DNA from: Alphaproteobacteria bacterium
GTDB lineage: Bacteria; Pseudomonadota; Alphaproteobacteria; UBA2966
Assembly: GCA_965200265.1 (NCBI GenBank)
Contig: OZ241357.1
Coordinates: forward strand, 8,179-72,178
Length of the DNA: 64,000 nucleotides
Direction: 5' to 3'
Shown: piece after piece, positions 5,906 to 64,000 of the stretch
How positions within the stretch are numbered: the stretch's first letter is position 1
How the letters are laid out: each line of letters opens with the position of its first letter
Notes under the pieces: generated by a model
Databases searched by the model: none
The model's input: the letters and a program-made list of their open reading frames with translations, nothing else
Told to the model about the DNA's origin: nothing
Made by a program: the position numbers and the translations under genes

Positions 5906-5978
5906 GCGGCCGCCGTCCGGACCGGCGCGCGGGATTCCGTCCCGGACCCGTGCGCGCCGCGCCGGGTTTCCCCTTCGA

Positions 5979-28621: not shown

Positions 28622-29207
28622 CTCGCGAGGCGCCGTGAAACCCGCCCGTCTGGCCCCCCGTCTGGCCTTGATCGCCGGCCTCGTCCTCGGAACGTTCCTG
28701 CCGGGCCGGTCCGCCGGCGCCGCCGACGCCGGGAACACCCTCCACATGGACCTCGAATACGGCCGCGTGACGATCGAGATGAGGCCGGATCTGGCGCCCC
28801 GCCACGTCGCGCGGATCAGGCAGCTGGTCCGGCAGGGCTTCTACGACGGGGTGGCGTTCCACCGCGTCATCGAGGGCTTCATGGCCCAGGGCGGCGATCC
28901 GACTGGGACCGGCCGGAGCGGGTCGGGGACGACGCTGCCGGCGGAGTTCTCGGACCATCCCCACGTCCGCGGCGTGGTCTCGATGGCGCGCACCCAGGAC
29001 CCCGACAGCGCCGACAGCCAGTTCTTCATCATGCTCGCTCCGGCCCCGCATCTCGACGGCCAGTACACCGTCTGGGGCAAGGTGGTCTCGGGCATGGAGT
29101 TCGTCGACCGGCTCGAACGGGGCGACCGGCAGCGCGGCGGCGTGGTCGCCGATCCCGACAGGATCGTCCGCATGACGGTCGCCGGGGACGCCGAGCGGGC
29201 CAACTGA
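28614..29207 (+). CDS. periplasmic peptidyl-prolyl cis-trans isomerase (cyclophilin type)
   Basis: ORF 28614..29207. Signal peptide, FHRVIEGFMAQGGDP and SQFFI motifs. Confidence 0.9.
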   Translation: MHSSRGAVKPARLAPRLALIAGLVLGTFLPGRSAGAADAGNTLHMDLEYGRVTIEMRPDLAPRHVARIRQLVRQGFYDGVAFHRVIEGFMAQGGDPTGTGRSGSGTTLPAEFSDHPHVRGVVSMARTQDPDSADSQFFIMLAPAPHLDGQYTVWGKVVSGMEFVDRLERGDRQRGGVVADPDRIVRMTVAGDAERAN

Positions 29208-29341
29208 ACGCCCCGCCCGGACGGGGGGCCGCCGGCGTCCGCGGAGCGGCGTTGCCAATCCCGGAGCGATGGTGTCCAATTCAAGGCGCGGCGCGGGTTG
29301 CGGGGAGCCGCCGCTTTCGAGAGGAACAGGGAGGGAGGACG

Positions 29342-30394
29342 ATGAGCAACTGGACCAGGAAGGGCGTGTCCCGCCGGGACGCCCTGAAGACCACCGGGGC
29401 CGCGGCGGCGGCCGGCGCGGTCGTCACCGGCTTTCCGGCGCTCGTGCGCTCGGCGCAGCAGAAGAAGTTCCTGAAGCCGATCGTCGCCGGCCTCAACGGC
29501 CGGCCCGGGGACCCGTCCTACGTATCGGTCTCCGAGGTGCCGCGGATACTGGCCGAGAAATACGACATCGAGGTCAAGTTCGAGGTCCATCACTCCTCGA
29601 CCCTGGGCACCGACCTGTCCCAGCTCGAGGCGGTGCAGACCGGCTTCATCGACGTCACCAGCAACGTGACGGCGCAGTTCTCGAAGTTCGACGATTCGTT
29701 CGCGTTCGTCGACCTGCCGTACATCGTCACCAGCTGGGACCAGTATCTCCGGGTCGCCAGGAGCGACGCCTGGAAGCGGCAGGCGGCGAAGTTCGAGAAG
29801 AAGGTGCCGGTGAAGGTGCTGCCGCCGGTCGGTGCCGGGGGCTACCGGCTGCTGTGGAACAACGTGCGTCCGCTGCCGGACCCGGGCGCCGTGCAGGGCC
29901 TCAAGTTCCGCACCGTCACGTCGCCGATCGCGATCGAGCTGATGAAGGCGTGGGGCGGCAATCCGACGTCGATGCCGTGGACGGAGACGTACACGGCCCT
30001 TCAGCAGAAGGTCGTGCAGGGCTTCCACGTGCAGCCGATCTGGACCTACAAGTTCAACATGTACGAAGTGCTCAAGTACGCGACGGAGGTGAAGGCCATC
30101 TTCGGAATCCAGTTCCAGGTCATGAACGTCAACACCTGGAACGCGATCCCCGAGGACATCCAGGGACCCATGATGATGGCGTTTCAGGAGGCCGCCGATC
30201 TCGGCAACGCCGCCGACCGCGATTCCGAGGACGGCTTCAAGGACAGGCTCCGCGAGAAGGGGATGGAGATCTACACGCCCTCGGCCAGGGAATACGCGGA
30301 ATGGCGTTCGCGGGGCGAAGGCATATGGGAGAAGGTCGGCGTCGGTTCGAGCATCGACAAGGGCCTGGTCGACGCCGTCGTCGAGATGGGCTGA
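29342..30394 (+). CDS. TRAP-type substrate-binding protein (DctP family) with Tat signal; no adjacent DctQM
   Basis: Inner start MSNWTRKGVSRRDALKTTGAAAAAGA (twin-arginine motif) after GGGAGGGAGGA in ORF 29252..30394. Confidence 0.8.
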   Translation: MSNWTRKGVSRRDALKTTGAAAAAGAVVTGFPALVRSAQQKKFLKPIVAGLNGRPGDPSYVSVSEVPRILAEKYDIEVKFEVHHSSTLGTDLSQLEAVQTGFIDVTSNVTAQFSKFDDSFAFVDLPYIVTSWDQYLRVARSDAWKRQAAKFEKKVPVKVLPPVGAGGYRLLWNNVRPLPDPGAVQGLKFRTVTSPIAIELMKAWGGNPTSMPWTETYTALQQKVVQGFHVQPIWTYKFNMYEVLKYATEVKAIFGIQFQVMNVNTWNAIPEDIQGPMMMAFQEAADLGNAADRDSEDGFKDRLREKGMEIYTPSAREYAEWRSRGEGIWEKVGVGSSIDKGLVDAVVEMG

Positions 30395-30399
30395 TCCGC

Positions 30400-44929: not shown

Positions 44930-44953
44930 ACGGCGGCCCGCCGCGCCGCGCGG

Positions 44954-49929: not shown

Positions 49930-50012
49930 GAGTGGCTGGTTGCCGGTTGCCGGTGGTCAGTGCCCCCCGCGCGCACTGACCACTGGCCACCGACCACCGG
50001 CCACCGGCCGCG
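49930..50012. repeat. heptamer-tract relic plus 9-bp-stem hairpin overlapping the glcF 3' end
   Basis: GCTGGTT GCCGGTT GCCGGTG heptamers, then hairpin GGTCAGTGC-n9-GCACTGACC (49954-49980), then CACTGGC CACCGAC CACCGGC CACCGGC. The last about 20 glcF codons (PVAGGRWPVVSARGGH) are read from this sequence. Confidence 0.6.
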
Positions 50013-51276
50013 GGCCGCCCGTCGCCCAGTCCAGAAGCTCCACCGTGTGGACGACCGGAAGGTCCGTGTAGGCCCCGATCTGCATGATGCAGCCGAGGTT
50101 GCCGGCCGCGACGACGTCGGGCGGCCCGGCGCGCTCCAGGTTCGCGGCCTTGCGCGCCCCGAGCCGCGACGCGATGGCCGGCTGGAGCATGTTGTAGGTT
50201 CCGGCGGAGCCGCAGCACAGGTGCCCCTCGGCCGGCGACCGGACGTCGAACCCCGCTTCCGCCAGCAGGCGCCGCGGCGGCTCGGTGAGGTGCTGTCCGT
50301 GGCGCAGGGAGCAGGCGTCGTGATAGGCCACGACCGTCGGTCGCGCCGGCCCCGGCTTCAGGTCCAGGCGCGCGAGCAACTCGGTCACGTCGACGGCGCG
50401 CGCGGCCACGGCCGCCGCCGCCTCGCGGAGTTCCGGCCGGTTGCGGAACAGGTGGGCGTAGTCCTTGATCGCGGCGCCGCACCCGGAGGCGTCGGCGACG
50501 ATGGCGTCGAGGCCGCCGCCCTCGATCTCGCGCCACCACGCCCGCACGCTCCGCTCCGCCGCGCGCAGCGCCGCCCGTTTGTCGCCGAGATGAAGGTTGA
50601 GCGCGCCGCAGCAGCCGGCGCCCTTGGCGACGACCACCTCGCATCCGTGCCGCCGCAGGACGCGCATCGTCGCTTCGTGGATCTCCGTCCCCGTCACCGA
50701 CTGGACGCAGCCCGTCAGCAGCGCCGCCCGCATGAGCCGCTCGCCTTGCGCGGGGTGGCGGCCGGGGGCGACGGCCGGCGCCGGGCCGCGGGCGATGCCG
50801 GGCGACAGCCGCGCCAGCGCCGCCAGGCGCGGCGGCAGCAACGCCGAGAACCGGCGCGCCAGGGCGCCCGCCGACATGGCAATTCGGAGCGCCGGCGGCC
50901 TGACCAGCACCCAGCCCAGGATGCGCCGCAGCCAGCGGTCCGGCCACGGGCGGCGGAACGTCGTTTCGATGCGGACGCGCGTCTGGTCGACGAGGCGCCG
51001 GTAGTCGACCCCCGCCGGGCACGTCGACTCGCACGACAGGCAGGAGAGGCAGCGGTCGATGTGCTTGACGGTCTCCGCCGCCGGGGGGCCGCCGGCCTCC
51101 AGCATCTCCTTCATGAGATAGACGCGCCCGCGCGGCGAATCGAGCTCGTCCCCGAGCAGGACGTAGGTCGGGCAGGTCGCCAGGCAGAACCCGCAGTGAA
51201 CGCACTTCCGCAGCACGCCGTTCGCGTCCGCGATCAGGGGATCGGCGAGCTGCTCCTCGGAGAAACGGGTCTGCAT
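49957..51276 (-). CDS. glcF: glycolate oxidase iron-sulfur subunit
   Basis: Inner start MQTRFSEEQLADPL in ORF 49957..51363. Two ferredoxin motifs, CVHCGFCLATCP and CLSCLSCESTCP, and CCG-type C-terminal domains (CCGSAG, CCGALN). Confidence 0.87.
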   Translation of the reverse strand: MQTRFSEEQLADPLIADANGVLRKCVHCGFCLATCPTYVLLGDELDSPRGRVYLMKEMLEAGGPPAAETVKHIDRCLSCLSCESTCPAGVDYRRLVDQTRVRIETTFRRPWPDRWLRRILGWVLVRPPALRIAMSAGALARRFSALLPPRLAALARLSPGIARGPAPAVAPGRHPAQGERLMRAALLTGCVQSVTGTEIHEATMRVLRRHGCEVVVAKGAGCCGALNLHLGDKRAALRAAERSVRAWWREIEGGGLDAIVADASGCGAAIKDYAHLFRNRPELREAAAAVAARAVDVTELLARLDLKPGPARPTVVAYHDACSLRHGQHLTEPPRRLLAEAGFDVRSPAEGHLCCGSAGTYNMLQPAIASRLGARKAANLERAGPPDVVAAGNLGCIMQIGAYTDLPVVHTVELLDWATGGPRPVAGGRWPVVSARGGH

Positions 51277-51391
51277 GGTGCCGCCGACGCTCCTTGATCG
51301 GGTCCTTGGGTATCCGCCCCGGAATATATCACCCCGTCCCTCCTGCCGTAGGGGTGGGGACAATTGACGGTGCGCGCCGACATGCGGCAGC

Positions 51392-53092
51392 TTGGGCGCA
51401 CATGCATCCGGCGGCCCATACGTGGAGAACGGCCCTCATGGCTCGACGAAGCCCCTCCGTTTCCGGCCCGGTCGCCGCGCACCGCGCGAGGCCGCGTTCG
51501 TGAACGCGCTGCACGCCGTCCTCAAACGGGTACGGGCGCGACTCGTGCTCATAATCCTCGTCGCGCTGCTGATCGGTCTGCTCGTGGTCTTCGTATGGGT
51601 CGGAGTTTTCGACCCGGCATGGGTCCATCGCTTCTTCTTCGGCGAGGTGAAGGACGCGGAGAAGTCTCGAATCCTGGAACTCATCGGCGTCGGCATGGGC
51701 GGCGTGCTGCTCGCCATCGGGGCGACGATCGCCAATCGCCGCGCCGTGGCGATGGAGGTGACCAACCGGGGCGCGGAGGACGGGCGGCGGCAGGAGCGGC
51801 TGAAGAACGCCATCGAGCATCTGGGCTACAAGTCGGACTCGGTGCGCCTGGGCGGGGCCTACGAACTCTTCCATCTGGCGCGGGATACCAAAGACCTGCG
51901 CCAGACGGTTATGGACATCCTCTGCGCCCACATCCGCCGGACAACGGGGGAGGACGGGTATCGGGAGACGTACAAGGAGAAGCCTTCGACGGAGGTGCAG
52001 AGCCTGCTGACTCTGTTGTTCAGACAGGAGCATGAAGTCTTCACGGGCCGCCGCATCGACTTGCAGGGAAGCTGGCTGAACGGGGCCATGCTCGAACGGG
52101 CGCGACTGCAACGGGCGGAACTTTCTGGAGCATATCTGCAAGGGGCGATCCTTCACGGGGCGGAACTGCAAGAGGCGATCCTTCACGGGGCGGAACTACA
52201 AGGGGCGAGCCTTCACGAAGCGCAACTGCAAGAGGCGTACCTTCACGAAGCGCAATTGCAAGGAGCGGACCTTCACATGGCGCAACTGCAAGGGGCGACC
52301 CTTCACGAAACGCAACTGCAAGGGGCGCAACTGCAACGAGCGAACCTTCACGGGGCGGAACTGCAAGAAGCGAACCTTCACGGGGCGGAACTGAAAGGAG
52401 CGAACCTTCACGGGGCGCAACTGCAAAGAGCGAACCTTCTCGAAGCGCAACTGCAAGGAGTGAACCTTCACGTGGCGCAACTGCAAGGAGCGTACCTTTA
52501 CGAAGCGCAACTGCAAGGGGCGGACCTTCACGGGGCGGAACTGCAAGGAGCGGATCTTCATGCGGTGCAACTACAAGGAATGAACCTTCACGGGGCGGAA
52601 CTGCAAGGAGCGAACCTTCACGCGGCGGAACTGCAAGGAGCGAACCTTCACGCGGTGGAACTACAAGGGGCGAACCTTCTCGAAGCGCGACTGCAAGGGG
52701 CGAACCTTCACGCGGTTCAACTGCAAGGAGCAAACCTTCACAAAGCGCAACTGCAAGAAGCGAACCTTCACGCGGCGCATCTGCAAGGGGTTACTTGCCA
52801 GGATAGCAGTCGTATATCGTTCAAGGGGCGTATCCGCGAAGGGATCGGCCGAGAGAACGACCTGTCAAAGGTGACGTTCGCGGGCGGGTTGAGTCAGGAA
52901 GACGTGGATTCTCTCGTTCAGGATTTGCCCGGCGAAAAAGCGAAAAAGTTGCGGGAGAAACTGGAACCGCATGTCGACAAGGAGGCGAGCAACGAATTGC
53001 CGGAAGGCAGAGGCGCCATTGTCGAGGCCTATACGGTGGAAGAAGCCGAGCGGTGGATCGCCGAATATGCGGAAGCGACGGGTGAAGCCTAA
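51392..53092 (+). CDS. membrane-anchored pentapeptide-repeat protein, paralog 1
   Basis: ORF 51392..53092; GTG 51500 (VNALHAVLKR) is a plausible alternative start. Two TM helices (LVLIILVALLIGLLVVFVWVGVF and ILELIGVGMGGVLLAIGATIA), then a helical module LKNAIEHLGYKSDSVRLGGAYELFHLA. About 48 consecutive A(N/D)L..-type pentapeptides follow, then a conserved tail AYTVEEAERWIAEYAEATGEA. Confidence 0.8.
   Translation: MGAHASGGPYVENGPHGSTKPLRFRPGRRAPREAAFVNALHAVLKRVRARLVLIILVALLIGLLVVFVWVGVFDPAWVHRFFFGEVKDAEKSRILELIGVGMGGVLLAIGATIANRRAVAMEVTNRGAEDGRRQERLKNAIEHLGYKSDSVRLGGAYELFHLARDTKDLRQTVMDILCAHIRRTTGEDGYRETYKEKPSTEVQSLLTLLFRQEHEVFTGRRIDLQGSWLNGAMLERARLQRAELSGAYLQGAILHGAELQEAILHGAELQGASLHEAQLQEAYLHEAQLQGADLHMAQLQGATLHETQLQGAQLQRANLHGAELQEANLHGAELKGANLHGAQLQRANLLEAQLQGVNLHVAQLQGAYLYEAQLQGADLHGAELQGADLHAVQLQGMNLHGAELQGANLHAAELQGANLHAVELQGANLLEARLQGANLHAVQLQGANLHKAQLQEANLHAAHLQGVTCQDSSRISFKGRIREGIGRENDLSKVTFAGGLSQEDVDSLVQDLPGEKAKKLREKLEPHVDKEASNELPEGRGAIVEAYTVEEAERWIAEYAEATGEA
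52076..52790 (+). repeat. about 24 tandem 30-bp units encoding the pentapeptide solenoid
   Basis: Near-identical units such as CTTCACGGGGCGGAACTGCAAGGAGCGAAC recur throughout, producing the mirror-image antisense ORFs 52041..52733 and 52196..52570. Confidence 0.85.
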
Positions 53093-53131
53093 GAGGACGC
53101 CGACGGCAAGGACGCGCCGACATGCGGCAGC

Positions 53132-54346
53132 TTGGGCGCGTGTGCATCCGGCGGCCCATACGTGGAGAACGGCCCTCATGGCTCTACGAAGCCCCTTCGT
53201 TTCCGGCCCGGTCGCCGCACGCCGCGCGAGGCCGCGTTCGTGAACGCGCTGCGAGCCATCCTCGAATGGGTACGGGAGTCGCCCGTGCTCGCGATTCTCG
53301 TCGCGCTGCTGATCGGTCTGCTCGTGGTCTTCGTGGTCGTCGGAGTTTTCGACCCGGCATGGGTCCATCGTTTCTTCGGCGTGGAGACGGGAACGGGAAA
53401 ATTCCGAATCCTGGAATTCATCGGCGTCGGCATGGGCGGCGTGCTGCTCGCCATCGGGGCGACGATCGCCCATCGCCGCGCCCGGGCGATGGAAGATGCC
53501 GCGAACGCGCAGGCGAAGGCGGTGGCGCAGCAGACAGTAGCCAACGAAGGCGCGGAGGACGGGCGGCGGCAGGAGCGGCTGAAGAACGCCATTGAGCATC
53601 TGGGCCACGAGTCGGACTCGGTGCGCTTGGGTGGGGCCTACGAACTCTTCCATCTGGCACAGGACACCGAGGATCTACGCCAGACGGTTATGGACATCCT
53701 CTGCGCCCACATCCGCCGGACCACGGGCGAGGCCGGGTATCGGGAGACGCACAAGGAGAAGCCTTCGACGGAGGTACAGAGCCTGTTGACCTTGCTGTTC
53801 GTACGGAAGCACGCGGTTTTCAGGGGTTGCCGCATCGACTTGCAGGAAAGTTGGTTGAACGGAGCAGAGCTCGCTGGAGCGTATTTATGTGGAGCATTTT
53901 TGGACGCGGCATATCTTCGACGTGCTACACTTGTTCATGCGTACTTACAGGGAGTTACATTTATAGGTACAGAAATGCAAAACTCCTATATTACGAATGC
54001 ACATATGCAAGGTTCTACTCTCATGGGGACTGAATTACAGGGAGCACAAGCTGTAAATACTTACTTTCAGGGTGCGATTTTACATGTAGTTGATTTGAAT
54101 GAATCCAATATAAATAATGCTGATTTTCGAGGTATAACACTGCCAAGATCAGGAGGTTTTTCGAACCTGATATTGGATTCCATAAATAAAGAAAGTGACT
54201 TGACTGGAATTATTTTTGGGCAAGAAAATAATCCACAAACTATACGAGTCATGCTTGAAAAAGCAGGTGCCATCATTGGAGCCTACACGGAGGAAGAAGC
54301 CGAGCGGTGGATCGCCGAATACAACGAAGCGACGGGCAGGGGATAG
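53132..54346 (+). CDS. membrane-anchored pentapeptide-repeat protein, paralog 2 (shorter, AT-richer repeat core)
   Basis: ORF 53132..54346 (alternative GTG 53240). The leader, TM and helical module are near-identical to paralog 1, as is the tail AYTEEEAERWIAEYNEATGRG. The central repeats (53.82-54.26 kb) are divergent and visibly lower in GC. The TAG stop lies 3 nt before the mod ATG. Confidence 0.8.
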   Translation: MGACASGGPYVENGPHGSTKPLRFRPGRRTPREAAFVNALRAILEWVRESPVLAILVALLIGLLVVFVVVGVFDPAWVHRFFGVETGTGKFRILEFIGVGMGGVLLAIGATIAHRRARAMEDAANAQAKAVAQQTVANEGAEDGRRQERLKNAIEHLGHESDSVRLGGAYELFHLAQDTEDLRQTVMDILCAHIRRTTGEAGYRETHKEKPSTEVQSLLTLLFVRKHAVFRGCRIDLQESWLNGAELAGAYLCGAFLDAAYLRRATLVHAYLQGVTFIGTEMQNSYITNAHMQGSTLMGTELQGAQAVNTYFQGAILHVVDLNESNINNADFRGITLPRSGGFSNLILDSINKESDLTGIIFGQENNPQTIRVMLEKAGAIIGAYTEEEAERWIAEYNEATGRG

Positions 54347-55987
54347 CCGATGCCGACGTTGCATTGGCTGACGCGGGACGAGGACGTCGGCGCGGCGTCG
54401 CGGGCGCCGTACCGGCTTCTGGAGGAGGCGCCGGAGCTTTCCGCCGGAGAGGCGGAAGCGGGCAACATGCTGATCCAGGGCGACAATCTGGAGGCGCTGA
54501 AGGCGCTGCTGCCGTTCTACGCCGGGCGGGTGAAGTGCGTCTACATCGACCCGCCGTACAACACACGCTCGGCTTTCGCGCACTACGACGACAACCTGGA
54601 GCACGCCAAGTGGCTCGCCATGATGTGGCCGCGGCTGGAGCTCCTGCGCGACCTGCTGGCGGACGACGGCTCGATCTGGGTCTCCATCGACGACAACGAG
54701 GCGCACTACCTCAAGGTCGTCATGGACGAAGTGTTCGGCCGCAACAATTTCATCGCAAATTTCGTCTGGCAGAAGAAATATACGCGCGCGAACGACGCAA
54801 CGTTCGTGAGCGATAATCACGATCATATAGTCTGCTTTGTGAAAGATCGTGATCAGTCATCTTTTCGAGGAATACAGCGTGACGAGAGACAGAATAAAGC
54901 ATACAAGAATCCTGATAACGATTCTCGTGGATCGTGGAAATCAACACCATTACATGCGAAAAGCGGAACAGAAAAGAATAGATACCCCTATACGTTTTCC
55001 AACAGAGTGACATGGACCCCGCCTGTCGGAACCTACCACCGATTCAGCAGGGAAACACTTGCTGAGCTTGACCGTACAGGGCAATTGTGGTTTGGAACGA
55101 AGGGGGATGCGACTCCTTCGCGCAAGTCGTACCTGTCGCAAGTGAAGCAGACAGTGGTTCCGGTTACGGTATGGCTGCACGACGAGTTCGGTAGCAATCA
55201 CGACGCCAAGAACGAGAACCGGGCCGTGTTGCCGAGCGCCTATTTCGATACCCCAAAGCCCGAGAAGCTATTGGGACGTATTCTTGAGATCGCCACCGAC
55301 CCGGGCGATCTCGTGCTCGACTCGTTCCTCGGCTCCGGCACCACGGCGGCGGTCGCGCACAAGATGGGCCGGCGCTGGATCGGCGTCGAGCTGGGCGAAC
55401 ACGCCGTCACCCACTGCGCGCCGCGCCTGAAGAAGGTGATCGAGGGCGAACAGGGCGGCATCTCGCGGTCGGCGGGCTGGACGGGCGGCGGCGGCTTCCG
55501 CTTCCACCGCCTGGGGCCGCCGGCCTTCGACGCCGACGGGCGCATCCGGCCGGACGTCTCCTTCCCCGTGCTCGCCGCCCACGTCTGGTTCGCCGAGACC
55601 GGCCGCCCGTGGACCGCGCCGGCGGCGCCGTCGCCCTTCCTCGGCGCGCGCGACGGGCGGGGCTACGCGCTGCTCTACAACGGCGTGCTCCGCGACCGCT
55701 CGGCCGCCGGCGGCAACGTGCTGACGCGGCGCACGCTGTCGGCCATCCGCGCCGCGGCGGGCGGTTTCGACGGGCCGCTCACCGTCTACGCCGCGCGGTC
55801 GGCGTTCCGCGACGCGACGCTGAAGGCGGAAGGGCTGGCCTTCCGGCAGACGCCCTACGACGTGACGGCGCGGGCCTGACCGATGGAGCTCAAGCCCTAT
55901 CAGGCCGAGGCGCTCGACACGCTGCGCCGCTTCCTGGAGGACGCGCGGATCGCCGGGCCGGCGGCGTCCTACGAGAAGCTCGCCGCC
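54328..55987 (+). repeat. segmental direct duplication, copy 1 (mod allele 1 plus first ~35 codons of res)
   Basis: 54350-54745 and 55290-55987 are near-identical by eye to 60196-60590 and 61140-61836. The centres differ. Confidence 0.85.
54350..55879 (+). CDS. mod: type III restriction-modification methyltransferase (Mod), allele 1
   Basis: ORF 54350..55879. Beta-class order: catalytic DPPY (VYIDPPYNT) first, a variable middle, then SAM motif VLDSFLGSGTT. Confidence 0.9.
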   Translation: MPTLHWLTRDEDVGAASRAPYRLLEEAPELSAGEAEAGNMLIQGDNLEALKALLPFYAGRVKCVYIDPPYNTRSAFAHYDDNLEHAKWLAMMWPRLELLRDLLADDGSIWVSIDDNEAHYLKVVMDEVFGRNNFIANFVWQKKYTRANDATFVSDNHDHIVCFVKDRDQSSFRGIQRDERQNKAYKNPDNDSRGSWKSTPLHAKSGTEKNRYPYTFSNRVTWTPPVGTYHRFSRETLAELDRTGQLWFGTKGDATPSRKSYLSQVKQTVVPVTVWLHDEFGSNHDAKNENRAVLPSAYFDTPKPEKLLGRILEIATDPGDLVLDSFLGSGTTAAVAHKMGRRWIGVELGEHAVTHCAPRLKKVIEGEQGGISRSAGWTGGGGFRFHRLGPPAFDADGRIRPDVSFPVLAAHVWFAETGRPWTAPAAPSPFLGARDGRGYALLYNGVLRDRSAAGGNVLTRRTLSAIRAAAGGFDGPLTVYAARSAFRDATLKAEGLAFRQTPYDVTARA

Positions 55988-56023
55988 CACGCTGTCGCCA
56001 AGGCGGCTCCCCGTGTAACATGA
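55883..56023 (+). pseudogene. 5' stub of type III res (46 codons)
   Basis: MELKPYQAEALDTLRRFLEDARIAGPAASY matches the start of the full res at 61732. Identity ends at about 55987 and the frame stops at TGA 56021-56023. Confidence 0.8.
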
Positions 56024-56138
56024 CGGGCAGGCTGAAGGTCTGCATGGTGTCTCAAACCAACAGCTTCGGAGACCCCTTACCCTCCTTCAAGGGCCCCGTC
56101 TTGCATGTGTCTGAACCAGGTCAGCGACCAGGGCCGGC

Positions 56139-57191
56139 ATGACCCGAACCACTGACATCAAGGCCATTGACTTCTGTTGTGGTGCCGGCGGATTGACTCG
56201 CGGCTTGCTTGACGCGGGCGTTTCGGTGGTGGCGGGGCTGGACAACGACGAGCGTCTACGCAAGACCTACGAGCGCAACAACAAGCCCAGCCGCTTCGTC
56301 GCTGGCGACATCGCCGAAGTGGAGATTGACGCGCTTCGGACCGATCTAGGCATCGACGAGGAAGACATCACCTTGTACGCCGCCTGCACACCTTGCCAGC
56401 CGTTCTCCAGCCTCAACACCGCCAAGGGCGAAGACGGCAGGAAATCTCTGCTGCTGGAGTTCGGCAAGATCGTGGCCCAGCGTCCGCCGGACTTCATCAT
56501 CGTGGAGAACGTGCCGGGCTTGCACAACGCCTTTGGCCTGGACATCTACCAGGAGTTCATGGCGGCTATCAAAGCCCAGGGCTTTTGCGCCGCCTCGGAC
56601 CTCTTGGACGCCAAGGACTACGGCGTTCCGCAAACGCGCAAGCGCTTCATTCTCGCCGCCGCCAGGGGCCGCGAGCCCCGGCTGCCTGTCGCCACGACCA
56701 GGAACAGCCCGGTCACCGTGCGCGAGTGCATCGAGAAGTACCCACCCTTGGCGGCCGGCGAACAAGACACCAGGTTCGTCAACCACGCCGCCCGCAAGCT
56801 GCCACCACACCATCAGAGAATCGTAGCCGCCGTGCCCACGGATGGCGGTAGCCGCAGCGACGTGGCTGACACGTCGATTCTGCTGCCCTGCCACCAACGC
56901 CACCCCAAGGCGCACAAGGACGTTTTCGGCCGCATGGCGTGGGATGCGCCCAGCCCGACGTTGACCTGCCGCTGCACGGATGTCTACTGTGGCCGCTTCG
57001 TCCACCCACAGCAGGACCGCGGCATCTCGCTGCGCGAAGCCGCCGCGCTACAGACGTTCGACGACAGCTACGAGTTCTTCGGCGGCTCGTTCCTGGAGCA
57101 GGCGCGGCAAATCGGCAACGCCGTTCCCGTGCGACTGGCAAGAGCCTTGGGAACGGCTGCCATCGAGTGCCTGCAACCGACCAGGGCCTAG
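56139..57191 (+). CDS. DNA (cytosine-5)-methyltransferase
   Basis: ORF 56139..57191. Motif I DFCCGAGG, IV TPCQPFS, VI ENVPGL, VIII QTRKRF, X GNAVPV. Confidence 0.93.
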   Translation: MTRTTDIKAIDFCCGAGGLTRGLLDAGVSVVAGLDNDERLRKTYERNNKPSRFVAGDIAEVEIDALRTDLGIDEEDITLYAACTPCQPFSSLNTAKGEDGRKSLLLEFGKIVAQRPPDFIIVENVPGLHNAFGLDIYQEFMAAIKAQGFCAASDLLDAKDYGVPQTRKRFILAAARGREPRLPVATTRNSPVTVRECIEKYPPLAAGEQDTRFVNHAARKLPPHHQRIVAAVPTDGGSRSDVADTSILLPCHQRHPKAHKDVFGRMAWDAPSPTLTCRCTDVYCGRFVHPQQDRGISLREAAALQTFDDSYEFFGGSFLEQARQIGNAVPVRLARALGTAAIECLQPTRA

Positions 57192-57205
57192 CCAAGGAAG
57201 TTGCC

Positions 57206-59113
57206 GTGTCCAGTCCCTACCGGATCGATTTCGACATTTCCACCATCAAGCACCTCGGCTTGCAAATGTACGCCACGCTGCCGCCGGTGGTCGGGGAACT
57301 GGTCGCCAACGCTTGGGACGCAAACGCCACCCAAGTCGAAATCACCATCCCGGAAACGCCGATAGACGAGCACACGTCGGAAATCGTCATCAAGGACAAC
57401 GGTGTCGGCATGTCCGACAGCGACATTCGCGAAAAGTACCTCATCGTCGGTCGCGACCGGCGCGAGAGCGAAGGCCGTGACCGGACCCCTGCGCCATTGA
57501 ACCGCCCAATCATGGGACGCAAGGGCATCGGCAAGTTCTCGGCGTTCGGCATCGCCCGAGAGCTGGAGATAGAGAGCGTCAGCAACGGCACCGTAAGCCG
57601 CTTCGTGATGGATTACGACACGATGCTCGCAAACGCATCACGCCGCCATGCCGAATTTCCACCGCTTCAGCCCACCGGATGCACAACGGAGGGCACGACG
57701 ATCAGGCTGAGGCGAATTACCAAGTATCGGACTCGGAGCATCTCGTTGCCTCGGTTGCGCCGAGGGCTCGCCAGACGCTTCGCCGTCATCGGCTCGCAGC
57801 GCCAATTCCAGGTCGTCATCAACGACTCGCGGATCTCCGTCGAGGAGCGGGAAATGCAGCGGCTGCTCGCGAAGGATGCCGACGGCAACGCCTATCTTTG
57901 GAAGTTTGAGGACGAGGAGATCATGCCCGAGACCGGTTGGAACGTATCCGGTTGGATCGGCGCATTGGACCGAACGACGTCAGATGCGGATGGCGTGGAC
58001 CGAGGCATCTCCATCATGGCGCGCGGTAAGCTCGTGCAGGAGCCGTTCGTGTTCAACGCCGTCGTCGGCCAACAATTTGCACTGTCGTACCTCGTCGGGG
58101 AACTGCACGCGGAGTTCGTCGATGCTGGCGAGGACACCATTGGAACGAGCCGCAACGTGTTGGTCTGGGATACTGAAGCGAACGCCAAACTCATGGAGTG
58201 GGGAAAACGGCAGGTAACGAAGATCGCTCGCGAGTGGGCGGAGAAACGCCAAACCGACAACATTCGTAAACTGGAGAACAACGACCTGTACCGCAGCTTC
58301 AAGGAGCGTGCGAGCGAAGTCGGCAGCAAACACGCGTTTCCATTGGCCGACAAACTTGTGCGACAAGCGATCAGTAAAAACCCCACGGCTGGCGTTGACG
58401 AACTAGAGCCCATCATCAAGACCTCTCTGGATTTTCTGGAGTTCGACACATTCTGGGAGATCGCCCAAGGAATGGTTCAATCCGATCTGGATGACGTTGC
58501 AGCGTTGCTTGGCTTGTTCAAGGAATGGGAGGTCGTGGAAGCGAAGGAGATGATGCGTGTTACCGAGGGCAGAATTACCACGATAGGGAAGCTGCAAGAC
58601 CTCATCGAGAAGAACGCCCTCGAAGTACCCACACTGCATAACTTTCTCAAGGAGTTCCCGTGGGTCATCGATCCACGCTGGACGCTGGTGGCTGATGAAG
58701 TTTGGTTCAGCGATATGTTGAAGGAGAAGTTCCCCGACGGCGATATTGCCGAGAAAGATAGGCGAATCGACTTTCTGTGCGTTCGCGAAAGTACGAACTT
58801 TGTGGTTGTTGAAATCAAGCGCCCAGGTAGCAAAGCTTCCAATAAGGAGTTGGATCAGATATTGCGCTATGTTTCTTTTGTTCGAGACTATGTGGAGCAA
58901 ACCACAGATCCTGAACTGGCGACTCGAAACGTGGTCGGCTACTTGCTTTGCGGCGATCTGGTTGATACTTGGGAGGTGCGAGGAAAAAAGAAAGTACTTG
59001 AGCAATCACAAATCTACGTGAGGCGATACGGGGACCTATTGGGTATGGTCAAGAAGATTCACCAAGAGTTCATCGAACGCTATGAACAGCTGCAAGAACG
59101 AATCAAGACGTGA
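57206..59113 (+). CDS. GHKL (MORC/MutL-like) ATPase fused to a C-terminal PD-(D/E)xK nuclease (DUF4263/Shedu-like)
   Basis: GTG 57206 follows AAGGAAG in ORF 56939..59113. N box ELVANAWDA, G1 DNGVGM, G2 GRKGIGKFS. C-terminus RIDFLCV...VVVEIKRPG carries a D...ExK signature. Starts 14 nt after the C5-methyltransferase. Confidence 0.78.
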   Translation: MSSPYRIDFDISTIKHLGLQMYATLPPVVGELVANAWDANATQVEITIPETPIDEHTSEIVIKDNGVGMSDSDIREKYLIVGRDRRESEGRDRTPAPLNRPIMGRKGIGKFSAFGIARELEIESVSNGTVSRFVMDYDTMLANASRRHAEFPPLQPTGCTTEGTTIRLRRITKYRTRSISLPRLRRGLARRFAVIGSQRQFQVVINDSRISVEEREMQRLLAKDADGNAYLWKFEDEEIMPETGWNVSGWIGALDRTTSDADGVDRGISIMARGKLVQEPFVFNAVVGQQFALSYLVGELHAEFVDAGEDTIGTSRNVLVWDTEANAKLMEWGKRQVTKIAREWAEKRQTDNIRKLENNDLYRSFKERASEVGSKHAFPLADKLVRQAISKNPTAGVDELEPIIKTSLDFLEFDTFWEIAQGMVQSDLDDVAALLGLFKEWEVVEAKEMMRVTEGRITTIGKLQDLIEKNALEVPTLHNFLKEFPWVIDPRWTLVADEVWFSDMLKEKFPDGDIAEKDRRIDFLCVRESTNFVVVEIKRPGSKASNKELDQILRYVSFVRDYVEQTTDPELATRNVVGYLLCGDLVDTWEVRGKKKVLEQSQIYVRRYGDLLGMVKKIHQEFIERYEQLQERIKT

Positions 59114-59152
59114 GCCGATGCGATGGCCAAGTCGGACATCGGCCGCGCGACC

Positions 59153-59290
59153 CGGTCACGGCCGGCGGAACGTCGATTCGATGTGGACGCGCGTCTGGTC
59201 GACTTCCGCCAAGCATGTCGACTCGCACGACAGGCAGGGGAGGCACCGGTCGATGTGCTTGACGGTCTCCGCCGCCGGGGGGCTGCCGGC
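59153..59290 (-). pseudogene. glcF fragment
   Basis: Colinear with glcF nt 50937-51096 (CGGCGGAACGTCG.TTCGATG.GGACGCGCGTCTGGTCGAC ... GTCGACTCGCACGACAGGCAGG.GAGGCA.CGGTCGATGTGCTTGACGGTCTCCGCCGCCGGGGGG). It has an internal deletion and reads ...AAETVKHIDRCLPCLSCESTC... then stops. Confidence 0.75.
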
Positions 59291-59425
59291 ATGACGCGGG
59301 GTCGTACCCCTCGGGGCGCGACCCGGACTTTCGCGAGATACGACGACCGGCGGTACACAAGGCGTTGCATCGGCTACGGTGCCGGTCTATTGAAGAAGTG
59401 TAAGGGTTGCTTGTGAGGATCGCCG

Positions 59426-60160
59426 ATGTCTACTGCTGATGAACGACAATACAAACCACCTCGTATAGATAAGCGGGCCTTCAATTGCCCGCATTGTGGT
59501 GCTTTTGCGCACCAATATAAATATCAGACGATGGTCCAAATGATAACAAGTGATGAAAATTTCACTGCAACAATATCTCGCGATATGTCACAAAACAGGA
59601 AGAATCCATTCATAACACAAAATAATTCATATTCTCAATATCAACGAGATATGGGAGGTATTTACTTTTTTCGTTGCGGCAGCTGTCATGAGTTATCCAT
59701 ATGGATATTCAGTGAGATGATCTGGCCCTCGAAGAGTGGCGTACCACTTCCAAATCCAGATTTGCCGGATGATGTCCGTAGGGATTATGAAGAGGCAGGT
59801 GCCATTCTCGGATCGTCACCTAGGGGTGCCGCAGCATTGTTACGCTTGAGTATCCAGAAGTTGTGCAAACACCTTGGCGAATCTGGGGATAACTTGAACA
59901 AAGACATCTCTGAATTGGTCAAAAAAGGTCTCCCTCCTCTAATAAAAGAGTCGTTGGATTCGGTCCGGGTAATCGGAAACCATGCTGTTCATCCAAGTCA
60001 TATCGATCTTCAAGATGATCCAGAAACAGCACGAATCTTGTTTGATCTTGTCAATATAATTGCGGATTCAATGATAAGCACCCCGAATAAGGTGAAGAAG
60101 GTATATGAAAGTCTTCCTGAAGGCGACAAGCAAGCGATAAAAAAGAGGGACGCGAGTTAG
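59426..60160 (+). CDS. DUF4145 domain protein with N-terminal 4-Cys zinc ribbon
   Basis: ORF 59426..60160, the lowest-GC gene in the window. CPHCG...CGSC, and a helical segment AAALLRLSIQKLCKHLG...LDSVRVIGNHAVH typical of DUF4145. Confidence 0.7.
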   Translation: MSTADERQYKPPRIDKRAFNCPHCGAFAHQYKYQTMVQMITSDENFTATISRDMSQNRKNPFITQNNSYSQYQRDMGGIYFFRCGSCHELSIWIFSEMIWPSKSGVPLPNPDLPDDVRRDYEEAGAILGSSPRGAAALLRLSIQKLCKHLGESGDNLNKDISELVKKGLPPLIKESLDSVRVIGNHAVHPSHIDLQDDPETARILFDLVNIIADSMISTPNKVKKVYESLPEGDKQAIKKRDAS

Positions 60161-60177
60161 CCGATGGCGAAGCATCG

Positions 60178-61836
60178 AGGAAGCGACAAGCACCTATGCC
60201 GACGCTGCATTGGCTGACGCGGGACGAGGACGTCGGCGCGGCGTCGCGGGCACCGTACCGGCTTCTGGAGGAAGCGCCGGAGCTTTCCGCCGGAGAGGCG
60301 GAAGCGGGCAACATGCTGATCCAGGGCGACAACCTGGAGGCGCTGAAGGCGCTGCTGCCGTTCTACGCCGGGCGGGTGAAGTGCGTCTACATCGACCCGC
60401 CGTACAACACGCGCTCGGCCTTCGCGCATTACGACGACAACCTGGAGCACGCCAAATGGCTCGCCATGATGTGGCCGCGGCTGGAGCTCCTGCGCGACCT
60501 GCTGGCGGACGACGGCTCGATCTGGGTCTCCATCGACGACAACGAGGCACACTACCTCAAGGTCGTCATGGACGAGGTGTTCGGAAGAACATGTTTCATC
60601 GGGAATATGATTTGGCAGAAGATATTTTCTCCGAAGAACAGTGCTCGGCACTTTTCGGCGGATCATGACCATATGTTTGTTTACGCTCGTGATTCGGAGA
60701 CTTGGTTGCCGAATCCGCTACCCAGAACGGAGAGGCAAGACAAGCTCTACAAGAATCCCGATAACGATCCACGCGGGCCTTGGACGTCGGGTGACCTTTC
60801 GGCTCGAAACTATTACGGCGCAGGGACCTATCCGGTGACTACTCCGAAAGGTAGAATCATTTCAGGCCCTCCCAAGGGTATGTATTGGCGTGTTTCCAAG
60901 GAGAAAATGGCTGATCTTGATCGAGAGGGGCGCATTTGGTGGGGATCAGGTGGCAACAATGTCCCCCGACTGAAACGCTATCTCTCGGAAGTAAGGACTG
61001 GAATCGTCCCGCAAACCATTTGGTTCAATCAGGATGTCGGCAATACGCAAGAAGCCAAGAAAGAGATCGTGAGCCTGTTCGGCGACGACGTGTTCGGCAC
61101 CCCCAAGCCCGAACGCCTGATCCAGCGCGTCCTGCACATCGCCACCGACCCGGGCGATCTCGTGCTCGACTCGTTCCTCGGCTCCGGCACCACGGCGGCG
61201 GTCGCGCACAAGATGGGCCGGCGCTGGATCGGTATCGAGCTGGGCGAGCATGCCGTCACCCACTGTGCGCCGCGCCTGAAGAAGGTGATCGAGGGCGAAC
61301 GGGGCGGCATCTCCACGGCAGCGGGCTGGACGGGCGGCGGCGGCTTCCGCTTTCACCGCCTGGGGCCGCCCGCCTTCGACGCCGACGGGCGCATCCGGCC
61401 CGACGTCTCCTTCCCCGTGCTCGCCGCCCACGTCTGGTTCGCCGAGACCGGCCGCCCGTGGACCGCGCCGGAGGCGCCGTCGCCCTTCCTCGGCGCGCGC
61501 GACGGGCGGGGCTACGCGCTGCTCTACAACGGCGTGCTCCGGGACCGCTCGGCCGCCGGCGGCAACGTGCTGACGCGCCGCACGCTGTCGGCCATCCGCG
61601 CCGCGGCGGGCGGTTTCGACGGGCCGCTCACCGTCTACGCCGCACGGTCGGCGTTCCGCGACGCGACGCTGAAGGCGGAAGGGCTGGCCTTTCGGCAGAC
61701 GCCCTACGACGTGACGGCGCGGGCCTGACCGATGGAGCTCAAGCCCTATCAGGCCGAGGCGCTCGACACGCTGCGCCGCTTCCTGGAGGACGCGCGGATC
61801 GCCGGGCCGGCGGCGTCCTACAGGAAGCTCGCCGCC
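60178..61836 (+). repeat. segmental direct duplication, copy 2 (mod allele 2 plus start of intact res)
   Basis: See copy 1. The offset between copies is about 5.85 kb. Confidence 0.85.
60196..61728 (+). CDS. mod: type III restriction-modification methyltransferase (Mod), allele 2
   Basis: ORF 60196..61728. The first 133 aa and the last ~205 aa are essentially identical to allele 1. The central ~170 aa (TCFIGNMIWQKIF...FGTPKPERLIQRVLH) diverge strongly. Confidence 0.9.
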   Translation: MPTLHWLTRDEDVGAASRAPYRLLEEAPELSAGEAEAGNMLIQGDNLEALKALLPFYAGRVKCVYIDPPYNTRSAFAHYDDNLEHAKWLAMMWPRLELLRDLLADDGSIWVSIDDNEAHYLKVVMDEVFGRTCFIGNMIWQKIFSPKNSARHFSADHDHMFVYARDSETWLPNPLPRTERQDKLYKNPDNDPRGPWTSGDLSARNYYGAGTYPVTTPKGRIISGPPKGMYWRVSKEKMADLDREGRIWWGSGGNNVPRLKRYLSEVRTGIVPQTIWFNQDVGNTQEAKKEIVSLFGDDVFGTPKPERLIQRVLHIATDPGDLVLDSFLGSGTTAAVAHKMGRRWIGIELGEHAVTHCAPRLKKVIEGERGGISTAAGWTGGGGFRFHRLGPPAFDADGRIRPDVSFPVLAAHVWFAETGRPWTAPEAPSPFLGARDGRGYALLYNGVLRDRSAAGGNVLTRRTLSAIRAAAGGFDGPLTVYAARSAFRDATLKAEGLAFRQTPYDVTARA

Positions 61837-64000
61837 GAACCCGAACTCGCGGCGCGGCTCGGGCGCTACGCCGGGACCTACGCGCCGCTCAAGGGCCTGC
61901 CGGAGACGCCGCACGTCTGCCTGCGCCTGCCGACCGGCGGCGGCAAGACGCTCCTCGCCGCCCATGCCGTCGCCGTCGCCCGCCGCGCCTGGGTCGATCG
62001 CGACCATCCCCTCGTCCTGTGGCTGGCGCCGACCGCGACCATCCGCCGCCAGACGGCGGAGGCGCTGAAGAACCCGCGCCACCCGTGCCGCCGCGCCCTC
62101 GACGCGGCGTTCGCGGGCCGGGTGCGCGTCTTCGACATCGCCGACTTCGCCCAGCTTCGCCCTCACGACCTGCGCGGCAGGTGCTGCGTCGTCGTCGGCA
62201 CCATCCAGACGCTGCGGGTCAAGGACACCGACGGCCGCAAGGTCTACGCCCACCACGAGGACATGGAGGCGCACTTCGCCGCCCTGCCCGCGGCCGCGAT
62301 CGATGCCGCCGCCGCGCCGGGGCTGGAGCGCCTGGAGAACGGCCGGGTCAAGTTCTCCTTCGCCAACCTGCTGCATCTCCAGCGCCCGCTGATGATCGTC
62401 GACGAGGCGCACAACGCCGTCACCGGGCTCACGCGCGAGATGCAGGAGCGGGTGAACCCGTGCGCCGTGATCGAGTTCACGGCCACGCCGCGCAAGGGCT
62501 CCAACGTCCTGTTCAACGCCACGGCGTCGGAACTGAAGCGCGAGGCGATGATCAAGCTGCCGGTCGTACTCGCCGAGCACGACGCCTGGGAGGGCGCGGT
62601 GACCGCCGCCGTCGCCGCCCGCGCGGCCCTGGCCGCGGCGGCGAAGGGGGAGCGCGAGTACGTCCGCCCGGTGGCCCTGTTCCAGGCGCAGCCGAAGAAC
62701 CGCGAGGTGACGGTCGCGGCGCTGAAGCAGCACCTGATCGAGGTCGAGCGCGTGCCCGAGGAGAAGATCGCCGTCGCCACCGGCGCCCAGCGCGAGCTCG
62801 ACGGGATCGACCTGTTCGACCCGGACTGCCCGATCGAGCACGTCGTCACCGTCGAGGCGCTCAAGGAAGGCTGGGACTGCTCCTTCGCCTACGTCTTCTG
62901 TTCGGTGTCGCGGATCGGGAGCGCCACCGACGTCGAGCAGCTTCTCGGCCGGGTGCTGCGGATGCCCTACGCCGAACGGCGCGCCGACGCCGCCCTGAAC
63001 AAGGCCCATGCCTTCGTCTGCGAACCGACGTTCGGCGCCGCGGCGAAGGCGCTGACGGACAGGCTGGTGGGCATGGGCTTCGAGGAGGACGAGGCGGAAG
63101 ACGCCATCGAGCGGCGGCAGCCGGCGCTGGACGGGAACGGCGGCCTGTTCCGTCCCGGCGGCGATGGGGATCGCGCGGAGACGCAAGGCCCGGCGTCGCC
63201 GGCGGACCGGGGAGAGGCCTTCGCGGTTCCGCGCCTGATGTCGGAAGTCCAGGAGGAGCTGGAGCTCGCCGACACCGACGTGTTCATGGAGAGTCACGAC
63301 TGGTCGCTCGCCGGCCATCCGTTCCGGCCGGACGCAAGCGCGTTCGAGATCCTCGAGACGGCGCGCGGGTTCGAGATCGACGTCGACGGCGACCGCGTGG
63401 TCTACAGGCAGACCGGCGCCGAAGCGCAGTTCATGCTCGACGTCGACGTGGAGGGCTGGACGCCGCAGAGCCTGGTGCTGTGGCTCGACCGCGAGGTCCG
63501 CGCCATCGACATCGACCAGGGCGACCTGATCGCCTGGCTGTCGGGCTTCGTGAACCACCTGACGGCGGCGTGCGGCCTCCCGCCCGCCGCGCTCATGCGC
63601 GCCAGGTTCCTGCTCGCGCGCAAGGCGAAAGGGCGGATTGCCGCCATCCGCCGCGAGGAGCGCGCGAAGGTCTACCAGCAGCGCCTGTTCGCGCCGGAAG
63701 CCCGGCCGCGGGTCTCCTTCGACCACGCCTTCGCGTTCCGCGACGGCATGTACGCCGACGAACGGCGCTACCGCGGGCGCTGGCGGCCGAACCGGCACTT
63801 CCTCGGCGCCGACGCCGTGCCCGCCTTCGACGGCGCCGACGACGGCGAGGAGGTCCAATGCGCCCAGGCCCTCGATTCCCTGCCCGGCGTGACGTTCTGG
63901 ATCAGGAACGTCGCGCGGCACCCGGAGTCGTTCCGGCTGCCGCTCGCGGAAGGCTGGTTCTATCCCGATTTCGTGGCCCGGCTCGACGACGGCCGGTTCC
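61732..64000 (+). CDS. res: type III restriction endonuclease Res subunit (helicase-nuclease), 3' end beyond window
   Basis: Not in the ORF track because no stop falls within the window; translated by hand from ATG 61732 with no stop to nt 64000. Motif I LPTGGGKT, II IVDEAHN, III FTATP, then ALKEGWDC and QLLGRVLR. Approaching the nuclease core, ...GWFYPDFVA. Confidence 0.88.
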   Translation, partial: MELKPYQAEALDTLRRFLEDARIAGPAASYRKLAAEPELAARLGRYAGTYAPLKGLPETPHVCLRLPTGGGKTLLAAHAVAVARRAWVDRDHPLVLWLAPTATIRRQTAEALKNPRHPCRRALDAAFAGRVRVFDIADFAQLRPHDLRGRCCVVVGTIQTLRVKDTDGRKVYAHHEDMEAHFAALPAAAIDAAAAPGLERLENGRVKFSFANLLHLQRPLMIVDEAHNAVTGLTREMQERVNPCAVIEFTATPRKGSNVLFNATASELKREAMIKLPVVLAEHDAWEGAVTAAVAARAALAAAAKGEREYVRPVALFQAQPKNREVTVAALKQHLIEVERVPEEKIAVATGAQRELDGIDLFDPDCPIEHVVTVEALKEGWDCSFAYVFCSVSRIGSATDVEQLLGRVLRMPYAERRADAALNKAHAFVCEPTFGAAAKALTDRLVGMGFEEDEAEDAIERRQPALDGNGGLFRPGGDGDRAETQGPASPADRGEAFAVPRLMSEVQEELELADTDVFMESHDWSLAGHPFRPDASAFEILETARGFEIDVDGDRVVYRQTGAEAQFMLDVDVEGWTPQSLVLWLDREVRAIDIDQGDLIAWLSGFVNHLTAACGLPPAALMRARFLLARKAKGRIAAIRREERAKVYQQRLFAPEARPRVSFDHAFAFRDGMYADERRYRGRWRPNRHFLGADAVPAFDGADDGEEVQCAQALDSLPGVTFWIRNVARHPESFRLPLAEGWFYPDFVARLDDGRF

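Follow-up and report, generated by a model that had tools for sequence, protein, structure and literature searches.

Type III restriction-modification (R-M) systems such as EcoP15I and EcoP1I are encoded by a mod gene placed directly before res, with Mod carrying the DPPY and FxGxG motifs around a central variable target-recognition domain (TRD) and Res combining a superfamily 2 (SF2) ATPase with a C-terminal PD...ExK nuclease. Such systems hemimethylate an asymmetric site, and their ATP-dependent cleavage requires two sites in inverse orientation. Families of modA alleles are known in Haemophilus and Neisseria. Allelic replacement of TRDs and movement of domains have been described in mod genes, where the conserved ends of Mod flank interchangeable TRDs (Furuta and Kobayashi, 2012, PMC3467074). 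Pentapeptide-repeat proteins (PRPs) that mimic DNA, such as Qnr, MfpA, and AlbG, are built on a right-handed quadrilateral beta-helix, and integrase-mobilized islands linked to tRNA genes are located at the tRNA 3' end. Insertion with a long target duplication was reportedly first described for Helicobacter pylori. R-M complexes inserted in this manner are bracketed by long target repeats, and rearrangements linked to R-M systems have also been reported (Furuta, Abe and Kobayashi, 2010, PMC2853133). PD-T7-4, now called RAZR (ring-activated zinc-finger RNase), is a single-gene abortive-infection RNase with a Cys4 ribbon and a DUF4145 HEPN-like domain that is activated around ring-shaped phage proteins (PMC13017515). 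Here we describe a region at the end of a 64,000-nucleotide stretch of contig OZ241357.1 (the window, meaning the whole stretch analyzed) that is a mosaic phage-defense island of about 12.9 kb in a sponge-associated alphaproteobacterium. The island contains four phage-defense systems and took shape around a Type III system through duplications, insertions, and swaps of domains; its home is the 3' end of a tRNA-Gly(CCC) gene upstream of apaG, about 175 nt beyond the end of the window. It belongs to an already known type, the tRNA-linked defense island shaped by R-M-associated recombination.

Compared with EcoP15I and EcoP1I, the adjacency of mod and res (a 3-nt gap), the Mod motifs around a central TRD and the SF2 ATPase and nuclease of Res are retained, but two full-length mod genes accompany one intact res, and a gene for a membrane PRP is translationally coupled upstream of mod. 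As in the described mod systems, interchangeable TRDs lie between conserved Mod ends, with the exchange occurring here between near-identical strains; different from those systems, two alleles stand in tandem in one genome, the TRDs are 20 points of guanine-cytosine (GC) content below the host, and the simple-sequence tract of phase-variable modA-type genes is lacking. The described insertions with target duplication are matched by an R-M unit between long target repeats (here 1.64 kb), by a target that is itself an R-M locus and by a position next to a tRNA gene and at a synteny breakpoint; different from them, the repeat copies are not identical, since their TRDs differ, and the insert also brings in RAZR, which is not an R-M system, and part of a housekeeping gene. 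The RAZR homolog has the same domains as the described protein, but it carries an extra 35-45 residues or so (roughly residues 32-81) between the CxxC pairs and is encoded at a GC content of 0.43 in a 0.71 genome of a marine alphaproteobacterial host. The PRP shares the beta-helix of Qnr, MfpA, and AlbG, to which it adds a pair of transmembrane helices at its N terminus, a helical stalk some 70 residues long and a conserved cap; its repeat number is hypervariable, and its gene is tied to a Type III mod-res pair, not to topoisomerase protection. Finally, the island shares its position with integrase-mobilized tRNA-linked islands, but neither an integrase nor a tRNA 3' repeat at its far border was found.

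Anchoring of the island at tRNA-Gly(CCC)

The right border lies outside the window and was reached through an independent metagenome contig (L002), which is 97% identical to the window, extends past its end and was retrieved with the DUF4145 protein; an exact look-up of mod2 gave no match. In L002 the tRNA-Gly(CCC) gene directly abuts res and is encoded on the other strand; the last 35 nt of the res frame fall within it. The tRNA gene is followed by apaG, folE, trkH, an M20 peptidase gene and argF, and by neither glcE nor glcD, which the first-pass annotation had proposed to look for by extending the contig. The tRNA-Gly-apaG-folE-trkH block is conserved in relatives, and the 74-nt tRNA gene shows no differences (100% identity) among genomes whose identity is otherwise 84-92%.

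Relatives display this site in different states. L083 (about 84% nucleotide identity) contains a gene for an S-adenosylmethionine (SAM) methyltransferase and a short open reading frame (ORF), followed by tRNA-Gly-apaG. This is an empty site, for which the first-pass annotation had proposed to look in close relatives; L083 is a more distant one, and the site lies at tRNA-Gly-apaG. The closest complete genome, OZ251449.1, is a metagenome-assembled genome labelled Alphaproteobacteria, and two of its loci, L086 (the tRNA site) and L001 (the glc operon), were compared with the window. In L086 (about 90% identity) the SAM methyltransferase gene is followed by a PRP gene, by 19 mod codons joined to the last ~30 nt of res, and by tRNA-Gly-apaG; the segment at 11049-11131 is a deletion scar with a CGCGGGCA-type microhomology, CGCG(G/C)GCA, at the mod/res join. 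Because remnants of both mod and res follow the PRP gene there, the common ancestor had a PRP-mod-res module here, from which OZ251449.1 later lost mod-res by deletion. Similarly, L094 has the methyltransferase gene, a broken PRP and a mod stub, so that the left neighbor of the PRP gene is a SAM methyltransferase gene in two relatives (L086 and L094).

A short interspersed repeat of 60-96 nt (76-92% identical) is scattered intergenically in OZ251449.1, on both sides of the PRP gene included, with copies in L086 (9457-9660, 11244-11324, 15285-15344, and 16408-16494) and in L001 (14942-15041, 17245-17339, 18624-18717, and 6787-6859). These repeats could serve as rearrangement substrates.

The split glc operon at the left edge

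The left neighbor of the island in the window is glcF, which lacks glcE upstream, as the first-pass annotation had observed; neither glcD nor glcE was found in the 64-kb window. In L001, and in essentially every judgeable one of 80 metagenomic GlcF loci, glcD-glcE lie directly upstream of glcF. The window aligns with L001 through glcF, aptA and the genes beyond, and this homology breaks off 1 nt ahead of the glcF ATG. Two further loci (L087 and L088) carry glcDE about 92% identical to L001, with homology lost at the glcE stop codon and unrelated genes after it. Taken together, these two ends place the cut within the 14-nt glcE-glcF spacer. In a sequencing run that contains 98% of the window's words (X1), a contig with glcE has a depth of 47.5, compared with about 50 for the window contigs, and 30 of 30 bases after glcE agree with L087; by this depth and identity, the genome of the window very probably keeps glcDE elsewhere. 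In OZ251449.1, glcDEF-aptA is intact and the PRP/tRNA-Gly locus lies 118 kb away in the same orientation. The glcF-aptA segment was moved next to a pre-existing island by one or more rearrangements, with the joint at the island's left edge. Contigs from four runs of different studies cross the glcF/PRP1 joint, which indicates an old and fixed joint. One inversion of the order in OZ251449.1 was considered and rejected; the orientations fit and the order of the window would be reproduced, but the predicted joint between glcE and the methyltransferase gene is not present in L087 or X1.

Integration of a foreign island between glcE and glcF, with displacement or loss of glcDE, would account for glcF without glcE, for a break exactly in the spacer and for the glcF fragment inside the island, which would be integration debris. 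This was in essence the placement given by the first-pass annotation, but we consider it very improbable: the far flank is tRNA-Gly-apaG-folE-trkH instead of glcE, PRP-mod-res relics occupy the tRNA site in OZ251449.1 while its glcDEF is intact 118 kb off, the ancestral left neighbor of the PRP gene is a SAM methyltransferase gene in two relatives, and glcDE persist elsewhere in the source sample. Of the stepwise insertion and rearrangement proposed in the same annotation, a compositionally foreign mosaic that grew by duplication, insertion and recombination is retained, but the glc locus as the target of insertion is not.

The displaced glcF looks functional from its sequence. The encoded protein is 90% identical in amino acids to that of L001, and the ratio of nonsynonymous to synonymous substitution rates (dN/dS) is 0.27, compared with 0.23 for the neighboring aptA, whose aminotransferase product matches the Caulobacter-type AptA model. 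The glcF fragment within the island differs by 12% from the resident gene; some of its states are those of glcF in the window and others those of glcF in L001, from which it follows that the fragment came from this clade.

Two side observations concern this operon. A 32-nt inverted repeat (49932-50004, 84% complementary, 9-nt loop) with GGTTGCC-like units lies across the glcF stop and the aptA start. Also, the glcD-glcE pair, 92-96% identical among L001 (7144-9987), L087 (8395-11233) and L088 (8391-11248), has different neighbors on both sides in each, and its homology ends at gene boundaries in the three related genomes, as if the pair had moved as a cassette.

Table 1. Positions of island genes, repeats, joints and linked loci; positions are those of the window unless another locus is named
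Feature	Position	Strand	Description
glcF	49957-51276	-	intact, 439 codons; NCBIfam GlcF 416.8 bits (cutoff 333); left flank, outside the island
Junction segment	51277-51372 (96 nt)	.	between glcF start and PRP repeat unit; left rearrangement joint
PRP1	51392-53092	+	membrane-anchored pentapeptide-repeat protein; Pfam Pentapeptide 5.8e-63
PRP2	53132-54346	+	tandem paralog of PRP1; stop 3 nt ahead of the mod1 ATG
Left copy of the 1.64-kb direct repeat	54347-55987	+	mod and first 35 res codons
mod1	54350-55879	+	PADLOC MTase_III 7.7e-183; TRD-A at about 54746-55280; without a res of its own
res stub	55883-56023	+	35 res-homologous codons to 55987, then 11 unrelated codons and a stop
Insert between the repeats	55988-60192 (4205 nt)	+	spacer, 5-methylcytosine (m5C) methyltransferase, restriction endonuclease, glcF fragment, RAZR
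m5C methyltransferase (Type II M)	56139-57191	+	Pfam DNA_methylase 1.3e-49; TIGR00675 dcm 123.6 bits (cutoff 100.65); PADLOC MTase_II 2.5e-76
GHKL-ATPase-type Type II restriction endonuclease	57206-59113	+	BbrUII/HgiDII family; 635 aa; GTG start as in L002
glcF pseudogene fragment	59147-59290	-	gene nt 181-342 (50935-51096), 88-89% identical, 18-nt deletion; oriented as glcF; also in L002
RAZR / PD-T7-4 homolog	59426-60160	+	PADLOC PD-T7-4 1.1e-78, profile positions 3-208 of 211; PDB 9y9c 1.7e-54
Right copy of the 1.64-kb direct repeat	60193-61836	+	flanks 95-98% identical to left copy; central 540 nt unrelated
mod2	60196-61728	+	PADLOC MTase_III 5.5e-193 (full profile); Pfam N6_N4_Mtase 3.6e-48; TRD-B at about 60591-61130
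res	61732 to past 64000	+	Pfam ResIII/DEAD; PADLOC REase_III 1.3e-175; cut by the window end
tRNA-Gly(CCC)	L002 12144-12217 (window-equivalent about 64175-64248)	-	directly abuts res, opposite strand
Linked PRP loci	L091 7001-12312; L095 5963-12827; L085 10001-11314; L086 10001-11131; L094 10001-11273		PRP before mod

The Type III system with two mod genes

Mod1 and Mod2 have the same sequence over residues 1-131 and again C-terminal of about residue 310, with unrelated central TRDs. In total, the four Mods of the window and L002 are identical at both ends and carry three different low-GC TRDs: mod1 of L002 has the same TRD-A, and its mod2 has a third TRD. Between the two strains the flanks of mod2 are 98% identical and about 540 nt of TRD have been replaced, and the N flank and TRD-A of mod1 are 100% identical (window 54350-55490 and L002 2306-3446) in surrounding DNA of 97% identity, which suggests that this mod1 allele was recently transferred or swept. 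Within L002, no difference separates the C flank of mod1 from that of mod2 (100% identity), but those of the window differ by 2-5%, a contrast pointing to gene conversion. Between mod1 and mod2 the flanks have a synonymous divergence (dS) of 0.10-0.14, with 0.14 and a dN/dS of 0.02 for the N flank, and both copies are under purifying selection (dN/dS 0.02-0.2). No tandem or simple-sequence repeat was found in 54350-55879 or 60196-61728, and the variation is thus not phase variation by simple-sequence repeats.

The DPPYN and FLGSGTT motifs are present in the Mod2 alignment. Res is complete in L002 (825 aa, ending at about window-equivalent position 64209) and aligns end to end with Res of a distant locus, L095, with the nuclease motif YPDF...VVEYKG (PD...ExK) conserved; a sequence search for a related solved structure detected none. 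Mod2-Res would restrict DNA lacking its N6-adenine mark. By position mod1 may be an orphan or a user of the downstream Res. As its N- and C-terminal parts are identical to those of Mod2, Mod1 probably uses the same Res and adds a second specificity; at minimum, it is predicted to methylate a second site.

The 4.2-kb insert, the Type II pair and RAZR

Both copies of the 1.64-kb repeat begin and stop abruptly, with one boundary 3 nt ahead of the mod ATG and the other at res codon 35 (55987/55988 in the left copy). Within the insert between them, dcm stops 14 nt ahead of the restriction endonuclease start and represents the adjacent cognate C5-cytosine methyltransferase. The endonuclease matches NCBIfam NF050001 over its full length (1.3e-102) with 344.5 bits, under the 550-bit equivalog cutoff, as well as PADLOC REase_II (6e-44); with a score below the cutoff it is assigned to the wider family only, and GTCGAC specificity cannot be assigned. 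This pair would add an m5C-based barrier. The RAZR homolog combines an N-terminal Cys4 zinc ribbon (CPHC...CGSC, C21/C24 and C84/C87) with a C-terminal DUF4145 HEPN-like RNase domain, in which RVIGNHAVH (R181...H189) aligns with CRIVGNQAVH and the catalytic Arg and His are kept. It is predicted to kill infected cells via RNA cleavage.

The repeats invite the question whether the twin mod genes are real. The gene order of the window recurs in L002, which was assembled independently, and the joints glcF/PRP1, PRP2/mod1, res stub/insert and fragment/RAZR/mod2 are spanned by short-read contigs of several runs, from which we conclude that the architecture is not an assembly artifact. Several strains co-exist in the source metagenome, and repeats of 95-98% identity could in principle arise from concatenated strain variants of one mod-res locus; this explanation is scarcely credible, however, as L002 comes from another sample and independent contigs in several runs cross 55987/55988, 59113-59426, 60160-60196 and 54346/54350. 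Contigs of four runs aligned to the island gave other joints that are short-sided and out of register. They yielded no form with a deletion between mod1 and mod2 and no glcE-glcF strains at a likeness of at least 88%, although contigs cannot show absence.

Insertion with long target duplication and repair of a break from a related allele fit this layout equally well. In the second version, the twin mod arrangement would have formed from imported DNA instead of in situ: a related strain's allele of the type dcm-REase-glcF'-RAZR-mod(TRD-B)-res would have been copied to repair a break in the chromosome at res codon 35, one end being joined by mod/res homology and the other illegitimately. We hold this to be a serious possibility while leaning slightly away from it. 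The left end of the repeat is the mod start, which is where such alleles would lose homology (PRP on one side, RAZR on the other), the dS of the mod flanks is not that of a fresh duplication, the glcF fragment of this clade is 12% off the resident gene with some states as in L001, and the mod2 TRD is demonstrably exchangeable between strains. A donor-type allele, with RAZR directly before mod and without PRP-mod1, was however not found; moreover, an old duplication in situ, with neutral decay of the fragment and TRD replacement afterwards, would fit these divergences as well, and dating is blurred by gene conversion.

Pentapeptide-repeat proteins linked to mod-res

The true start of PRP1 is probably near 51500. 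Within PRP1, a regular 30-nt tandem array occupies 52100-52788, its DNA units sharing 79-82% identity. The window and L002 have different numbers of units, and the length of the beta-helix is therefore variable between strains. The duplication unit 51373-53112 recurs from 53113, its 5' part being 88-94% identical, and direct repeats between PRP1 and PRP2 (D4-D6 and D8) are 83-89% identical. An AlphaFold2 model of PRP2 (predicted local distance difference test score of 86) shows two N-terminal transmembrane helices, a long helix, a helical cap and the pentapeptide beta-helix, and the protein has a short conserved C-terminal tail. The structural matches of the model in the PDB are PRP structures only, and the helical cap domain is without a structural match there.

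Relatives of the PRP N-terminal domain (908 at E below 1e-5) come mostly from metagenome assemblies. Seven distinct loci were inspected, the window and L002 counting as one, and the PRP gene stands directly 5' of mod or a mod relic at six of them; one locus (L089/L090) has a PRP without mod. The linked mods are intact, relic or fused to res, and PRP and mod overlap at the stop and start or lie 3 nt apart. In L091 the PRP gene overlaps the start of a 1373-aa Mod-Res fusion, and in L095 the order is PRP-mod-DUF1902-res. Four of the six linked loci are from the window's own clade, and the independent ones are only L091 and L095. At both of these, nucleotide identity to the window is 68-80% for each of PRP, the mod flanks and res, and the three genes thus travel together. 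In L095, a second mod 5' stub of 46 codons lies upstream of PRP (5963-6100) and the DUF1902 gene is inserted between mod and res (9852-10103); this module, homologous to the window's, is likewise undergoing rearrangement.

No PADLOC match or model exists for the PRP family. It was not found on viral contigs, plasmids yielded distant PRPs only, none with R-M neighbors, and a search of a limited library of literature returned no paper tying pentapeptide-repeat proteins to Type III R-M operons. It can be speculated, tentatively and with some doubt on our part, that the PRP is a third component of a Type III R-M subfamily in which the beta-helix holds or regulates Mod-Res at the membrane, one Res serves two Mods, and gene conversion renews specificity. 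As part of that reading, the beta-helix could offer a DNA-like surface at the membrane site of phage DNA entry.

Composition of the island

All genes of the island are on the plus strand, and glcF is on the minus strand. Profile searches recovered every gene that the first-pass annotation had named, from the pentapeptide proteins through res, and the embedded glcF fragment was located as a piece of 144 nt. The glcF gene itself was also where it had been placed, with its ATG at 51276, one base to the left of the 51277 given there. The annotation had further noted low-GC patches against a GC-rich backbone, and the sliding-window and k-mer analysis confirms this deviation: segments of 0.425-0.526 stand against a background of 0.707 +/- 0.032 (1-51 kb of the window in 500-nt windows). 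The lowest values are those of the 3' half of PRP2 (0.425, z -8.9) and the RAZR/DUF4145 gene (0.429, z -8.7), followed by TRD-A (0.497, z -6.6), the 3' half of the endonuclease gene (0.509) and TRD-B (0.526, z -5.7); the C-terminal part of mod and res are at background level. The tetranucleotide distance in the island peaks at z +11.

Rfam, promoter and terminator scans of the island gave nothing above chance, and the junction spacers (51277-51372, 55988-56138, and 59291-59425) had no informative match in any fetched locus. Some of the public runs containing the window sequence are labelled sponge metagenomes. Elsewhere in the window, an ORF of 1834 codons (29176-34680) has a C-terminal autotransporter beta-domain, and the GC skew there is unusually strong, at +0.1 to +0.2 between 31 and 35 kb.

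Proposed history of the island

We consider it likely that a tRNA-anchored PRP-mod-res core was later enlarged and that glcF was joined to it through rearrangement. The core would have been a PRP-mod-res module that the common ancestor of the window and OZ251449.1 already had at the tRNA site. The lineage of the window would since have acquired a tandem duplication of the PRP gene. One recombination event would have put the 4.2-kb block into res at codon 35 and left mod and the res start duplicated on both sides, either by insertion with long target duplication or by break repair with a relative's diverged allele as template. Exchange through the conserved flanks of mod would have swapped TRDs and homogenized these flanks. 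One or more rearrangements would have cut the 14-nt glcE-glcF spacer and joined glcF-aptA to the left edge of the island, with glcDE remaining elsewhere.

Several observations weigh against parts of this history. No mobility gene or attachment (att) repeat accounts for the arrival of the core at the tRNA gene: no integrase or transposase domain was detected among the island ORFs or in the L002 flank (~6 kb), and neither integrase nor att repeats, for which the first-pass annotation had proposed to look beyond nt 64,000, were found there; no copy of the tRNA-Gly 3' end was found in the window. No isogenic empty site for the 4.2-kb insert was found either, uninterrupted PRP-mod-res being present only in the distant L091 and L095, and a further single-copy trace is the deletion relic in L086. 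Downstream of aptA, synteny with L001 also ends at window position 44945 (L001 17200), another breakpoint within 6.5 kb of the island. The gene after glcE in L087 is a Pyr_redox_2 gene and not the methyltransferase gene that a single inversion predicts, and the tie of the X1/L087 glcDE contig to the genome of the window consists of depth and identity only. GTCGAC, the HgiDII site, is not avoided (75 occurrences, compared with 45.3 +/- 6.4 expected), a count that is uninformative if the real site differs. Also, the sharing of Res by Mod1 is argued purely from sequence identity.

Implications for defense islands and Type III systems

The first reading of the locus is corrected in that the anchor of the island is a tRNA gene outside the window and not glcF. 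The locus is a well-resolved natural example of defense-island growth, in which one R-M system is nested in another with a kilobase-scale duplication, TRDs are swapped between near-identical strains, and paralogous mod genes undergo gene conversion. A rearrangement at the island edge split a conserved operon in its 14-nt spacer with damage to neither gene. The PRP partner and the twin Mods that may share one Res are possibly new features. Beyond this locus, the recurring PRP-mod-res linkage, if functional, would give Type III systems an unrecognized accessory protein, one that appears common in metagenome-assembled bacteria, sponge-associated ones included. With a Res common to both Mods, two specificities could be combined in a single Type III system.

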